Assembly (NCBI RefSeq): GCF_058153355.1
Contig: NZ_CM177019.1
Strand: one strand, 5' to 3'
DNA length: 64,000 nucleotides
The position numbers were made by a program, and so were the translations under genes. Of the stretch, positions 4,102 to 11,275 are shown in pieces (position 1 is the first letter of the stretch; every line of letters begins with the position of its first letter). The notes beneath the pieces were generated by a model. The model was not told where the DNA came from and made no database searches. It saw only the letters and a list, made by a program, of their open reading frames with translations.

Positions 4102-5022
4102 TCAGTAACGGATTTTCGGGTCGATAACCGCATATAGCACATCGACAATGGCATTAAACAAAATGGTTAACGCGCCAACCAGAATGGTCAGACTTAACAC
4201 TAAGGAATAGTCACGATTCAATGCGCCATTAACGAACAATTGCCCAATCCCCGGTAAACCATAAATGGTTTCGATGACCATAGAACCGGTAATAATGCCG
4301 ACAAATGCAGGGCCCATATAGGAGAGCACGGGTAACAGAGCAGGTTTTAATGCGTGACGTAAAATGATCCGCCGCATAGGTAACCCTTTCGCCCGGGCAG
4401 TACGAATAAAATTGGAGTGTAATACTTCAATCATAGAGCCACGGGTAATACGCGCAATACTGGCGATATAGGCGAGTGACAACGCCACCATTGGCAGTAT
4501 CATGAATTTAAGCGCACCACCATTCCAGCCACCGCCCGGCAGCCAATGCAAAATGATCGCAAATATCATGACTAATAATGGCGCAACCACAAAACTGGGG
4601 ATAACAACCCCGGTCATTGCCAGCCCCATCACGGTATAGTCCCATTTGGTGTTTTGTTTTAATGCTGCAATAACGCCAGCACTAACACCCAGTATTACCG
4701 CAAGGAAAAATGCTGCGGCTCCCAGTTTTGCTGAAACGGGAAAACTGGATGCAACTAGGTCGTTGACCGAATAATCTTTATATTTAAACGATGGACCGAA
4801 ATCGCCATGCGCCAGTTGTTTCAGGTAGCTGAAATACTGTGTCATGATCGGATCATTAAGATGATATTTCGCTTCGATATTGGCCATCACTTCTGGCGGT
4901 AAAGTACGTTCGCCGGTAAAAGGGCTTCCCGGCGCGAGGCGCATCATGAAGAACGAAATAGTAATAAGAATAAATAGCGTCGGAATCGCTTCCAGACAGC
5001 GACGTAGAATAAATTTTAACAT
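4102..5022 (-). CDS. oppB: oligopeptide ABC transporter permease OppB
   Basis: 306-aa ORF, hydrophobic, typical DppB/OppB-family N-terminus MLKFILRRCLEAIPTLFIL. Confidence 0.92.
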   Translation of the reverse strand: MLKFILRRCLEAIPTLFILITISFFMMRLAPGSPFTGERTLPPEVMANIEAKYHLNDPIMTQYFSYLKQLAHGDFGPSFKYKDYSVNDLVASSFPVSAKLGAAAFFLAVILGVSAGVIAALKQNTKWDYTVMGLAMTGVVIPSFVVAPLLVMIFAIILHWLPGGGWNGGALKFMILPMVALSLAYIASIARITRGSMIEVLHSNFIRTARAKGLPMRRIILRHALKPALLPVLSYMGPAFVGIITGSMVIETIYGLPGIGQLFVNGALNRDYSLVLSLTILVGALTILFNAIVDVLYAVIDPKIRY

Positions 5023-5107
5023 TGCCCTACCTTCTGGCCTGTGCCTTCTGTAATGCGATAAAAATCAGACACCGTGGAGCAGGACACTCCTGCCCCACGT
5101 ATTGCCA

Positions 5108-6739
5108 TTAGTGCTTCACAATGTACATATTCCGGGTGTAGGTATTATCCAGCGGATCTTTGCCGGTATAGCCACCAACCCACGGTTTCACCAGACGCGC
5201 ATTCACGTAGTAATAAACAGGAACAATGGCCGAATCCTTATCCAGCTGTTGTTCTGCTTTAGTGTACAGAGCTGTGCGCTGCGCCTCGTCAGTCGCTTTC
5301 AGCGTTTCCGCCATAATGCTGTCAAAGGCCGGGCTCTTATAATGCGCGGTATTCATCGAGCTGTTCGACAGCATGGTGTTCAGGAAGGAAGTTGGTTCGT
5401 TGTAGTCTGCACACCAGCCTGCACGGGCCACATCAAAAGTACCCTGGTGACGGGTGTCGAGGAACGTTTTCCACTCCTGGTTAACCAGTTTGACGTTTAC
5501 ACCAATGTTTTTCTTCCATAATGAAGAGGCAGCAATCGCCAGCTTTTTATGCAGATCGGAGGTGTTATACAACAGGTTGATGGTCAACGGTTTGTCTGCG
5601 GTATAACCCGCTTCAGCCAGCAGTTTTTTCGCTTCTTCGTTACGTTTTTCCTGGCTCCAGCCAAACCATTCCGGCTGAGTCAATTTTGCGCCATCAGTAT
5701 ACGGTGGAGTGTAACCATAGGCGGGCATGTCGCCCTGCGCTTTCACTTTATTAACAATGATATCGCGGTCCATACCCAGTTTCAGTGCGGTACGCACACG
5801 TACATCGTTGAATGGCGGTTTCTGGTTGTTAATTTCGTAATAATAAGTGCACAGGTATGGATCAACGTGAACTTCGTCCGGGATCTCTTTTTTCAGCTTC
5901 TGGAACAATTCGATCGGCATGTTGTTATAAGTCATGTCGATTTCACCACTACGGTAGCGGTTGACATCGGTAACTTCAGAAGCAATAGGCAAATAGGTTA
6001 CCTGGTTAATAACGGTTTTCGCGTTGTTCCAGTAGGTTGGGCTGCGTTCAAGAACGATTCGTTCGTTTACGACCCAATCTTTTAAGGTATAGGCACCGTT
6101 GGTGATGATATTACCAGGCTGGGTCCATTTTTCGCCGAATTTCTCGATAGCGGCTTTTGGCACCGGTGAAGTTGATGGGTGAACAAGTAATTTATAGAAG
6201 TACGGAACAGGTTCACTTAAGGTGACTTCTAATGTGTGATCATCAATAGCTTTCACGCCGAGATCGGTAATCGGTTTTTTCCCTTCAAGAATTTCATCAA
6301 TACCGGCGATATGCCCATATTGCAGATAACTGGCATACGGAGAAGCGGTGTTTGGATCAACAGAACGTTGCCAGCTATACACAAAGTCTTGTGCTGTGAC
6401 TGGCGTGCCATCAGACCATTTCGCATCTTTACGCAAATGGAAGGTCCAGACTTTCGCGTCTTTATTATCCCAGGATTCAGCGACGCCAGGTGCCGGATGA
6501 CCGTCAAGATCGCTGACCAGTAAGCCTTCAAACAGGTCTCGGCTGATATTAGACTCCGGAACACCTTCAATTTTATGCGGATCTAATGACTGAACTTCTG
6601 AACCATTGTTACGTACCAGCGTTTGTTTTTCCGCCAGTGTGACGCCTGCGGGTACATCAGCTGCCAGCGCGACATTCCCTGCCATAAGCGCAGCCAGAAC
6701 GCCAGCTGCTACTAAACTTCTCTTGGTGATGTTGGTCAT
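5108..6739 (-). CDS. oppA: periplasmic oligopeptide-binding protein OppA
   Basis: ORF 5108..6811; start placed at the internal ATG giving MTNITKRSLVAAGVLAALMAGNVALA signal peptide (543 aa). Confidence 0.9.
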   Translation of the reverse strand: MTNITKRSLVAAGVLAALMAGNVALAADVPAGVTLAEKQTLVRNNGSEVQSLDPHKIEGVPESNISRDLFEGLLVSDLDGHPAPGVAESWDNKDAKVWTFHLRKDAKWSDGTPVTAQDFVYSWQRSVDPNTASPYASYLQYGHIAGIDEILEGKKPITDLGVKAIDDHTLEVTLSEPVPYFYKLLVHPSTSPVPKAAIEKFGEKWTQPGNIITNGAYTLKDWVVNERIVLERSPTYWNNAKTVINQVTYLPIASEVTDVNRYRSGEIDMTYNNMPIELFQKLKKEIPDEVHVDPYLCTYYYEINNQKPPFNDVRVRTALKLGMDRDIIVNKVKAQGDMPAYGYTPPYTDGAKLTQPEWFGWSQEKRNEEAKKLLAEAGYTADKPLTINLLYNTSDLHKKLAIAASSLWKKNIGVNVKLVNQEWKTFLDTRHQGTFDVARAGWCADYNEPTSFLNTMLSNSSMNTAHYKSPAFDSIMAETLKATDEAQRTALYTKAEQQLDKDSAIVPVYYYVNARLVKPWVGGYTGKDPLDNTYTRNMYIVKH

Positions 6740-7475
6740 TGTTTTTTGGACTCCCTCATTATAATTACTGGTATTAACCAGCATGTGTAATCCCGGATTG
6801 GGACCCTGCACAGGCTCGGAGACTTTCTGCTGTCAGGTTACTTTATCGTTACGGATTGCTATCACCGACTTTATTTATTCTGGTGATTCAGACGATCACC
6901 TTATGTCGATTCGTACTGTGTCTCCCCTGTCGAGACACATTATTCTTTTGCGACGCTCTTTAATTGTTAATTATTCTCATTACCAATAAAAATCGCCTGG
7001 CGGTTGGTCGGAAAGTACCAAATGCGCTTCTTACTCGCCAATACATTTTGCAAAATTGTTAAGCAATTCTCTTTTATTGACCGTATCAGAATCTATAGCT
7101 TGTATCCATGTCTTAACAAACATCTTTCAATTCAATCAAATAGAGATTGGTTAAGCATGTCTATCTTTTCTGATTACAGTTCCAGTAGTGAAATGCACAA
7201 TAATTTAACAATTGATTGTTATTTAGCACTTTCCTCTACCAAAGGCAGTGGAATTACTAATATCATTTCAATTATTCTTCAGCAAGCCCAGGATTATGAT
7301 GTGGCGAAAATAACATGATGGTGAGGAGAAACAGTTAAGGAAATCCTTATAACCAACTCTAATTTAAGAAGAATATTTTTACCCATTCCTATTGCTTTTG
7401 GTAACTGCACCGGAACAAAGTAAAAATAATGACGAAGTAAACGGAGCATGGCAGCTCCGTTTCATTTGAAAGGAA

Positions 7476-8123
7476 TTAATTAAGCAAGCCGGGGAAAATC
7501 CCCTTAATACCAGTAACGATAAATTCAATCCCCAATGCCATCAGCAATAGCCCCATAATACGCGTAATCACGTTGATGCCGGTCTGGCGTAAAACCCGTA
7601 CCAGCCACGGTGCCATGCGGAACAATCCCCAGCAACATAAAGCGAACAAAGCAATAGCCACAAAGAAACCAAACAGATAGCTAATGCTGTGATAACGCGT
7701 ACCCCAGACGATGGTAGAACTGATCGCCCCTGGCCCCGCCATCAACGGCAACGCCAACGGCACCACACCAATGCTTTCACGTACCGCGGTTTCTGATTTT
7801 TCTTGCTTGTTCTGTTTATCCTCGCCAAGCTTGCCGCTGATCATCGACATCGCTATTGTCACCACCAGGATGCCACCGGCGATACGGAATGAATCAATTG
7901 ATATACCAAAAAGTTGTAGAATCGTGTCGCCGAGAAAAAGCGAGATCCACAAGATAATGGCCACAGACAGGTTGGCTGTAAGGTTCGTTTTGTTTCGCGC
8001 TGCCGCTGTCTGATAACTGGTCATGCTGATAAAGACGGGAATAATCCCTACCGGGTTGACCAGCGCAAATAACCCGATGAAAAATTTGAAGTAAACGGGA
8101 AAATCAAAAAGGGTCTGAATCAC
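7476..8123 (-). CDS. ychE: MarC-family inner membrane protein YchE
   Basis: 215-aa hydrophobic ORF; position between oppA and adhE. Confidence 0.8.
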   Translation of the reverse strand: MIQTLFDFPVYFKFFIGLFALVNPVGIIPVFISMTSYQTAAARNKTNLTANLSVAIILWISLFLGDTILQLFGISIDSFRIAGGILVVTIAMSMISGKLGEDKQNKQEKSETAVRESIGVVPLALPLMAGPGAISSTIVWGTRYHSISYLFGFFVAIALFALCCWGLFRMAPWLVRVLRQTGINVITRIMGLLLMALGIEFIVTGIKGIFPGLLN

Positions 8124-8599
8124 GGTTAGCTCCGAAGCAAAAGCCGGATAATGTTAGCCATAAATAAGGTTAAAAAGACGCGCTGACAATACGCCTTTTG
8201 ACAGCATTTTTCACCTCCTAACTACTTAAAATTGCTATCATTCGTTATTGTTATCTAGTTGTGCAAAACATGATAATGTAGCCAACAAATCATACTACAA
8301 TTTATTAACTGTTAACTATAATGGCGAAAAGCGATGCTGAAAGGTGTCAGCTTTGCAAAAATTTGATTTGGATCACGTAATCAGTACCCAGAAGTGAGTA
8401 ATCTTGCTTACGCCACCTGGAAGTGACGCATTAGAGATAATAACTCTAATGTTTAAACTCTTTTAGTAAATCACAGTGAGTGTGAGCGCGAGTAAGCTTT
8501 TGATTTTCATCGGTTAAGCAAATCATCACCGCACTGACTATACTCTCGTATTCGAGCAGATGATTTACTAAAAAAGTTTAACATTATCAGGAGAGCATT

Positions 8600-11275
8600 A
8601 TGGCTGTTACTAATGTCGCTGAACTTAACGCACTCGTAGAGCGTGTAAAAAAAGCCCAGCGTGAATATGCCAGTTTCACTCAAGAGCAAGTAGACAAAAT
8701 CTTCCGCGCCGCCGCTCTGGCTGCTGCAGATGCTCGAATCCCACTCGCGAAAATGGCCGTTGCCGAATCCGGCATGGGTATCGTCGAAGATAAAGTGATC
8801 AAAAACCACTTTGCTTCTGAATATATCTACAACGCCTATAAAGATGAAAAAACCTGTGGTGTTCTGTCTGAAGACGACACTTTTGGTACCATCACTATCG
8901 CTGAACCAATCGGTATTATTTGCGGTATCGTTCCGACCACTAACCCGACTTCAACTGCTATCTTCAAATCGCTGATCAGCCTGAAGACCCGTAACGCCAT
9001 TATCTTCTCTCCGCACCCGCGTGCAAAAGATGCAACCAACAAAGCAGCTGATATCGTTCTGCAGGCTGCTATCGCTGCCGGAGCTCCGAAAGATCTGATC
9101 GGCTGGATCGATCAACCTTCGGTTGAACTGTCTAACGCACTGATGCACCACCCAGACATCAACCTGATCCTCGCGACCGGTGGTCCGGGCATGGTTAAAG
9201 CCGCATACAGCTCCGGTAAACCAGCTATCGGTGTAGGCGCGGGTAACACGCCAGTTGTTATCGATGAAACTGCTGATATCAAACGTGCAGTTGCATCTGT
9301 GCTGATGTCCAAAACCTTCGACAACGGCGTAATCTGTGCTTCTGAACAGTCTGTTGTTGTTGTTGACTCTGTTTATGACGCAGTACGTGAACGTTTCGCA
9401 ACCCACGGCGGCTATCTGTTGCAGGGTAAAGAGCTGAAAGCTGTTCAGGATGTTATCCTGAAAAACGGTGCGCTGAACGCGGCTATCGTTGGTCAGCCAG
9501 CCTATAAAATTGCTGAACTGGCAGGCTTCTCTGTACCAGAAAACACCAAGATTCTGATCGGTGAAGTGACCGTTGTTGATGAAAGCGAACCGTTCGCACA
9601 TGAAAAACTGTCCCCAACTCTGGCAATGTACCGCGCTAAAGATTTCGAAGACGCGGTAGAAAAAGCAGAGAAACTGGTAGCTATGGGCGGTATCGGTCAT
9701 ACCTCTTGCCTGTACACTGACCAGGATAACCAACCGGCTCGCGTTTCTTACTTCGGTCAGAAAATGAAAACGGCTCGTATCCTGATTAACACCCCGGCTT
9801 CTCAGGGTGGTATCGGTGACCTGTATAACTTCAAACTCGCACCTTCCCTGACTCTGGGTTGTGGTTCCTGGGGTGGTAACTCCATCTCTGAAAACGTTGG
9901 TCCGAAACACCTGATCAACAAGAAAACCGTTGCTAAGCGAGCTGAAAACATGTTGTGGCACAAACTTCCGAAATCTATCTACTTCCGCCGTGGCTCTCTG
10001 CCAATCGCGCTGGATGAAGTGATTACTGATGGCCACAAACGTGCGCTCATCGTGACTGACCGCTTCCTGTTCAACAATGGTTATGCTGATCAGATCACTT
10101 CCGTACTGAAAGCAGCAGGCGTTGAAACTGAAGTCTTCTTCGAAGTAGAAGCTGACCCGACCCTGAGCATCGTTCGTAAAGGTGCAGAACTGGCAAACTC
10201 CTTCAAACCAGACGTGATTATCGCGCTGGGTGGTGGTTCCCCGATGGACGCCGCGAAGATCATGTGGGTCATGTACGAACATCCAGAAACTCACTTCGAA
10301 GAACTGGCGCTGCGCTTTATGGATATCCGTAAACGTATCTACAAGTTCCCGAAAATGGGCGTGAAAGCGAAAATGATCGCTGTCACCACCACTTCTGGTA
10401 CAGGTTCTGAAGTCACTCCGTTTGCGGTTGTAACTGACGACGCTACTGGTCAGAAATATCCGCTGGCAGACTATGCGCTGACCCCGGATATGGCGATTGT
10501 CGATGCCAACCTGGTTATGGACATGCCGAAGTCCCTGTGTGCTTTCGGTGGTCTGGACGCAGTAACTCACGCCATGGAAGCTTATGTTTCTGTACTGGCA
10601 TCTGAGTTCTCTGATGGTCAGGCACTGCAGGCACTGAAACTGCTGAAAGAATATCTGCCAGCGTCCTACCACGAAGGATCTAAAAATCCGGTAGCGCGTG
10701 AACGTGTTCACAGTGCAGCAACTATCGCGGGTATCGCGTTTGCGAACGCCTTCTTGGGTGTATGTCACTCAATGGCGCACAAACTGGGTTCCCAATTCCA
10801 TATTCCGCACGGTCTGGCAAACGCCCTGCTGATTTGTAACGTTATTCGCTACAACGCGAATGACAACCCGACCAAGCAGACTGCATTCAGCCAGTATGAC
10901 CGTCCGCAGGCTCGCCGTCGTTATGCTGAAATTGCTGACCACCTGGGTCTGAGCGCACCGGGCGACCGTACTGCTGCTAAGATCGAGAAACTGCTGGCAT
11001 GGCTGGAAACGCTGAAAGCTGAACTGGGTATTCCGAAATCTATCCGTGAAGCTGGCGTTCAGGAAGCAGACTTCCTGGCGAATGTGGATAAACTGTCTGA
11101 AGATGCATTCGATGACCAGTGCACCGGCGCTAACCCGCGTTACCCACTGATCTCCGAGCTGAAACAGATTCTGCTGGATACCTACTACGGTCGTGATTAT
11201 GTAGAAGGGGAAACTGCAGCGAAAAAAGAAGCCGCTCCGGCTAAAGCTGAGAAAAAAGCGAAGAAATCCGCTTAA
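8600..11275 (+). CDS. adhE: bifunctional aldehyde/alcohol dehydrogenase AdhE
   Basis: 891-aa [29 protein letters not shown]... with C-terminal iron-containing ADH domain; preceded by RBS AGGAG. Confidence 0.97.

Follow-up and report, generated by a model that had tools for sequence, protein, structure and literature searches.

This analysis focused on a small open reading frame (ORF) in the spacer between oppA and ychE, within a 64,000-nucleotide stretch of DNA (contig NZ_CM177019.1) that is referred to here as the window. According to the ORF list of the window, oppA (5108–6739) and ychE (7476–8123) are both encoded on the minus strand and adhE (8600–11275) on the plus strand, a gene set that marks the window as part of an Escherichia chromosome. 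The spacer separating oppA from ychE is 736 bp long and has a G+C content of 37%. The ORF occupies 7004–7318 of the plus strand, antisense to both flanking genes as had been recognised from the sequence alone, and can be read from TTG 7004 (104 aa), ATG 7022 (98 aa) or ATG 7157 (53 aa), in each case up to the stop codon TGA at 7316–7318. It was the 53-aa form that the sequence-only reading had singled out, and the peptide quoted there matches the translation exactly. Two further ORFs are found on the minus strand of the spacer, one of 51 aa upstream of the oppA promoter P1 (7294–7449) and one of 30 aa within the oppA leader (7031–7123), both in poorly conserved stretches. Just upstream of ychE, also on the minus strand, is the 17-aa YchT (MLSKGVLSARLFNLIYG; 8154–8207), which has a strong Shine-Dalgarno sequence (AGGAGGTG) and is annotated in RefSeq, including MG1655 (b4771).

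The P1/P2 promoter region and long 5′ UTR of oppA (oppABCDF) in E. coli were reportedly described by Igarashi in 1997. Two oppA transcription starts, P1 (+1) and P2 (+246), have been confirmed, the former 'P3' (+341) has been shown to be an RNase E site, and pairing of the small RNA MicF with the leader has been mapped to +372–393 (Carrier, Lalaouna & Masse 2023, PMC9988348). These landmarks were placed in the window by aligning the published primers of that study. Aligned with the minus strand, primer EM4528 (T7 template, specifying RNA from +341, ATCGACATAAGG) begins at 6910, so that +1 falls at about 7250 and the AUG at +512; EM5064, the reverse primer that closes the P1 promoter fusion, has its end at 7249, and the P2-only construct starts at 7246. 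Located in this way, the oppA 5′ leader from P1 spans 6740–7250 on the minus strand, with transcription starting at about 7250/7249 and some 511 nt preceding the AUG at 6739. The start positions are carried over from K-12 numbering and may be in error by 1–2 nt, there being one indel between the window and K-12. The window spacer differs from that of K-12 by about 2–3%, including this single 1-nt indel, and is the same locus, with primers, RNase E site and MicF site all mapping at the expected spacing.

Promoter-like elements are present on the minus strand at the correct distance from both starts. At P1 (7257–7285, as positioned from the P1 start), a −35 hexamer TTGCTG (7285–7280) is followed after a 17-nt spacer by an extended −10 element, TGATATTAG (7265–7257). 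The −35 reads TTGCTG in 48 of 80 aligned sequences and TTGCCG in 21, and the extended −10 is TGATATTAG in 55 and TGTTATTAG, one base off, in 23. For P2 (7012–7041, start at about 7005), the −35 hexamer TTGGCG (7041–7036) and an extended −10, TGgTACTTT (7020–7012), are separated by 18 nt, and the two hexamers, TTGGCG and TACTTT, occur in 76 and 74 of the 80 sequences, respectively. Each of the P1 and P2 elements differs by no more than one base in at least 74 of the 80 and, given their spacing from the published starts, we infer that they are the functional elements of these promoters. The P1 core falls inside the 53-aa ORF on the opposite strand, and P2 overlaps ATG 7022 of the 98-aa form. Altogether, the 53-aa ORF covers the P1 core promoter, the P1 upstream region and leader positions +1 to +94, and the 98-aa form reaches P2, such that the leader from +1 to about +246 is antisense to the ORF.

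The coding potential of the ORF was assessed by comparing ychE neighbourhoods of GTDB species representatives, in 72 of which oppA adjoins ychE, together with seven RefSeq E. coli loci that were fetched separately. Only E. coli sensu stricto has the frame open; stop codons, loss of the ATG or length changes interrupt it in five sister lineages of Escherichia and in 71 further Enterobacteriaceae species. Length changes in the homologous segments of these 76 species are not multiples of three (+1, +7, +8 or +10 nt). The closest of the sister lineages (L004; 94% nucleotide identity) has ATA in place of ATG 7157 and an in-frame stop before that position, while in the four others (77–82% identity) the frame meets several stops and gains one nucleotide near the C-terminus; across the sister lineages ATG 7157 is replaced by ATA, AAG or other codons. 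In other genera the equivalent segment is longer by 7, 8 or 10 nt and full of stops. Plus-strand frames of up to 116 codons do occur in distant species (Raoultella, Citrobacter amalonaticus), and a shared protein was considered, but the central conserved block is read there in a different frame from that of E. coli.

Within E. coli the picture is one of neutral evolution. One point against a chance frame is that no stop breaks the 53-aa part in any of the 12 sampled E. coli sequences that are uninterrupted. Variants among 11 E. coli sequences were 5 synonymous and 15 non-synonymous, of which two were nonsense, giving a dN/dS of about 0.74, a value with low power as it rests on just 20 variants; the other two reading frames gave scores similar to that of the ORF frame in the same comparison. 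The nonsense alleles are TAA at 7128, found in O157-like strains, and TAG at 7149, found in AR_0058. Across 80 sequences, variability by codon position is flat (0.304, 0.328 and 0.315; permutation p = 0.52). The sequence-only reading had judged the ORF most likely spurious, had named frame conservation across close relatives as a check, and had held that absence of such conservation would speak against a gene. The frame turned out not to be conserved: none of the five sampled Escherichia lineages outside E. coli retains it, nor does any other genus, and this, together with the neutral pattern and nonsense alleles within E. coli, bears that judgement out.

Composition and initiation signals can be set beside these results. 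The GC3 of the ORF is 0.32, compared with 0.50–0.58 in oppA, ychE and adhE, and its codon log-likelihood is 0.06 bits per codon, where the minimum among the 30 long ORFs of the window is 0.18. No plus-strand sigma-70-like promoter was found upstream of either ATG (6900–7160, at 9 of 12 matches), in a consensus scan of a kind that can miss weak signals. The Shine-Dalgarno context is weak, ATG 7022 being preceded at 9–10 nt by GGAAAG and ATG 7157 by no convincing match.

The ORF is nonetheless annotated in many genomes. By megablast, the spacer was matched in 5,423 of 5,426 complete E. coli genomes at 95–99% identity, and 21 of 30 evenly sampled E. coli records (about 70%) carry a 'hypothetical protein' from the NCBI pipeline PGAP at the ORF. 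The product is the 98-aa form (WP_024044064.1 and WP_001211520.1), and both accessions represent the same ORF, at 97–98% identity, which many RefSeq E. coli genomes carry as an annotated feature of the oppA–ychE spacer. The PGAP call is purely ab initio and inconsistent, missing from five loci (L085–L088 and L090) in spite of an equally intact frame, and the curated MG1655 record has no CDS at the ORF. Searches of Pfam and NCBIfam profiles with the 98-aa product gave no match, and a search of 5.8 billion proteins returned matches that were almost all from Escherichia/Shigella or unnamed metagenome sequences, one being labelled Enterobacter hormaechei. An Rfam covariance-model scan of 5000–9000 found nothing real, the sole match, to SCARNA7, being a chance hit that scored 18 bits where the gathering score is 65. 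The annotation of the ORF is an ab initio call without support.

How often such a frame would arise by chance was estimated from dinucleotide shuffles of the 736-nt spacer. ORFs of 53 aa or longer that begin with ATG arose in 48% of these shuffles, and chance alone is thus fully sufficient to account for the 53-aa ORF. Those of 98 aa or longer arose in 1.8% of shuffles, and stop-free runs of 115 codons or more in 3.5%. The longer frame thus exceeds the expectation for a single spacer (P = 0.018–0.035), which is a point against the chance reading, although the 98-aa form is only mildly unusual for one spacer and is unremarkable genome-wide.

A young, E. coli-specific protein of 53 or 98 aa, arisen de novo and translated from a plus-strand transcript running antisense through P1 and the leader, would be in keeping with this somewhat unusual length, and with a frame that is open in most of the E. 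coli sampled, annotated by PGAP, and preceded at ATG 7022 by the weak GGAAAG. It would have to be reconciled with the lack of purifying selection and the nonsense alleles of O157-like strains and AR_0058, with disruption of the frame by IS5 in MG1655, with the missing match to a plus-strand sigma-70-like promoter and the poor Shine-Dalgarno context of ATG 7157, and with an AT-rich codon content unlike that of host genes. The product has no hydrophobic or other recognisable feature and belongs to no matched family, and elements of the minus strand already explain the nucleotide conservation. Such a protein is highly improbable. As a short frame opposite a region of regulatory RNA, it resembles antisense-encoded small proteins and type I toxins, but it differs from them in having no hydrophobic helix, no promoter match of its own in the consensus scan and no convincing Shine-Dalgarno sequence, no conservation and no cognate structured antitoxin arrangement. 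A related idea, that the ORF is a newly born, E. coli-restricted proto-gene translated at a low level from pervasive antisense transcription through an H-NS-bound oppA control region, and interfering with the firing of P1, we regard as extremely improbable. If true, it would add a species-specific layer to the control of oppA and might relate to the difference between E. coli and Salmonella in OppX and MicF.

Insertion sequences have repeatedly targeted the oppA–ychE spacer. In the MG1655 reference, IS5U is inserted at a site corresponding to window positions 7223–7226, with a TTAG duplication, and splits the 53-aa ORF; the site equals leader positions +25 to +28, so that the insertion separates P1 from oppA. 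The spacer of the window does not have this insertion. Other examples are ISSen4 in NCTC122 and IS1A in TUM22767, and about 83 of the 5,423 genomes holding the spacer contain no contiguous copy of it.

Strong nucleotide conservation is seen within the ORF because it contains minus-strand promoter and leader elements, not because of a protein. In each of the 72 GTDB species representatives in which both genes were located, the order ychE–oppA and the spacer length are maintained, and across the Enterobacteriaceae species compared the spacer measures 664–878 bp, mostly 730–800 bp, a constancy of length and gene order that indicates a long, conserved control region. Two blocks, 7010–7078 and 7195–7316, are 80–100% conserved from Escherichia to Buttiauxella and Cedecea. 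Nested in these, and common to about 20 genera, are near-invariant minus-strand blocks at 7195–7235, corresponding to leader +16 to +55 (AGAGGAAAGTGCTAAATAA..CAATTGTTAAATTATTGTGC), and at 7036–7078, corresponding to −30 to −75 of P2. RNA structure was considered as the cause of conservation in the parts antisense to the ORF and set aside, as RNAalifold gave no conserved structure over leader +1 to +111 and just a 4-bp helix over +141 to +256. Also rejected was a minus-strand upstream ORF in the +16 to +55 block (22 codons from GTG in E. coli, ATG-TGC-TAA elsewhere), the start and frame of which vary by genus and which shows no periodicity. The block at 7195–7235 is probably a protein operator or a single-stranded RNA site, and the unstructured conserved blocks in general, including the region upstream of P2, appear to be sites of one or other of these kinds. 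A strong Lrp ChIP signal is on record at the oppA promoter, and H-NS is listed within the oppA–ychE spacer, making these two proteins candidate binders of the near-invariant blocks. A putative, conserved CRP-like palindrome, TGTTA-N6-(T/C)CACA, lies on the minus strand upstream of P1 (7300–7315), overlapping the last codons of the ORF. Its TCACA half is CCACA in E. coli, and its centre, at about −57.5 from P1, would be unusual for class I CRP activation.

The sequence-only reading had also placed the ORF in a region where oppA is under small-RNA control, and this holds for the region but not for the coordinates of the ORF, both the MicF site (6858–6879, minus strand, from the published +372 to +393 of PMC9988348) and the GcvB/RBS site being downstream of it in the oppA leader. 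Pairing of the MicF 5′ end with the inferred leader (RNAduplex) was predicted at −22.7 kcal/mol over leader +350 to +394 (6857–6901), with a core at 6858–6879; because this independent prediction falls at the published site, it supports the placement of the leader landmarks. The core of the site, GTCGGTGATAGC, is identical in the alignment variants listed, representing at least 52 of the 80 sequences. Two leader hairpins on the minus strand, at 6917–6939 and 6882–6900, flank the RNase E site (+341, 6910) just upstream of the MicF site, and also lie outside the ORF. They show compensatory changes, with 3–6 standard pair types per base pair in the first and 2–5 in the second, and 74–96% of sequences paired. 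The hairpin at 6917–6939 was called as a plus-strand terminator-like site as well, with a T tract that is not conserved.

In Salmonella, the orthologous leader is the source of the MicF sponge OppX, in forms L, M and S of 410, 190 and 109 nt (Matera et al. 2022, as summarised in PMC9988348), and the sequence complementary to MicF is conserved among Enterobacteriaceae, the window included. E. coli differs from Salmonella in that no stable OppX-like fragment has been detected and MicF activates oppA translation (PMC9988348). Of the OppX source leader, the ORF overlaps only the 5′ part (the OppX-L region) and leaves the MicF site clear. RNA-seq in E. coli reportedly revealed an Hfq-dependent 'ychE-oppA' RNA (Raghavan et al. 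2011, as cited elsewhere), which is probably the same oppA leader. The studies of Shinhara (2011), Rau (2015), Melamed (2016) and Adams (2021) make no mention of the oppA–ychE spacer.

At the ychE end of the spacer is a hairpin on the minus strand at 7439–7462, with a 9-bp stem (AAACGGAGC / GCTCCGTTT), a 6-nt loop and symmetric A/T flanks. It had been noticed in the sequence-only reading, where it was placed at 7440–7465; the hairpin is real and only these coordinates needed correction. Its folding energy is −14.9 kcal/mol for the minus strand and −16.6 kcal/mol for the plus strand (z about −4). It begins 14 nt past the ychE stop codon and 121 nt beyond the stop of the ORF, and its stem pairs are kept in 60–91% of the 80 aligned sequences, with GC/AT/CG exchanges. 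The minus-strand U tract that follows is short (UUUACUU), and a terminator scan made no call at the site. The stem is strong and, in line with the earlier suggestion, the hairpin is best read as the ychE terminator, which would be of the intrinsic type. The flanks being symmetric in A and T, it could act on either strand.

This symmetry bears on another explanation, namely that a non-coding antisense RNA is transcribed from the plus strand and exerts control over P1 or the oppA leader, through either transcriptional interference or pairing, with the ORF incidental and the hairpin at 7439–7462 as its terminator. The hairpin does fold slightly better on the plus strand, where it is followed by TTTCATTT, and the Hfq-dependent 'ychE-oppA' RNA reported by Raghavan et al. 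(2011) could be taken as such a transcript. That RNA is more simply explained as the oppA leader, an OppX-like species binding Hfq and MicF; the hairpin abuts the ychE stop codon, as expected of a ychE terminator; no plus-strand promoter match was found in 6900–7160; and conservation fits minus-strand hexamers that are correctly spaced from the published starts. We consider an antisense RNA of this kind very unlikely.

The preferred reading, to which we assign a probability of roughly 0.9, is that the ORF is a fortuitous stop-free frame, restricted to E. coli, and antisense to the known regulatory DNA of oppABCDF. On this reading, what is conserved beneath the frame is cis-regulatory DNA of the minus strand, comprising promoter P1 (start at about 7250), which has an extended −10 and one or more upstream sites, the first 250 nt or so of the leader of about 511 nt, and the internal promoter P2 (start at about 7005). 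Transcripts from P1 and P2 carry the long oppA 5′ UTR, in which RNase E cuts at +341 and which MicF pairs with at +372–393 and GcvB at the RBS; its Salmonella counterpart is the source of the OppX sponge RNAs. All of the functional elements at the coordinates of the ORF belong to the described oppABCDF promoter and leader (the OppX locus).

Thousands of E. coli genomes have acquired this 'hypothetical protein' from the NCBI pipeline, and it is most likely an artefact of annotation that covers the P1 and P2 promoters and the leader of oppA. Mutation or deletion of this 'gene' would actually change the regulation of oppA and OppX. The near-invariant blocks, at leader +16 to +55 and upstream of P2, could guide work on the control of oligopeptide uptake by Lrp, H-NS or CRP.
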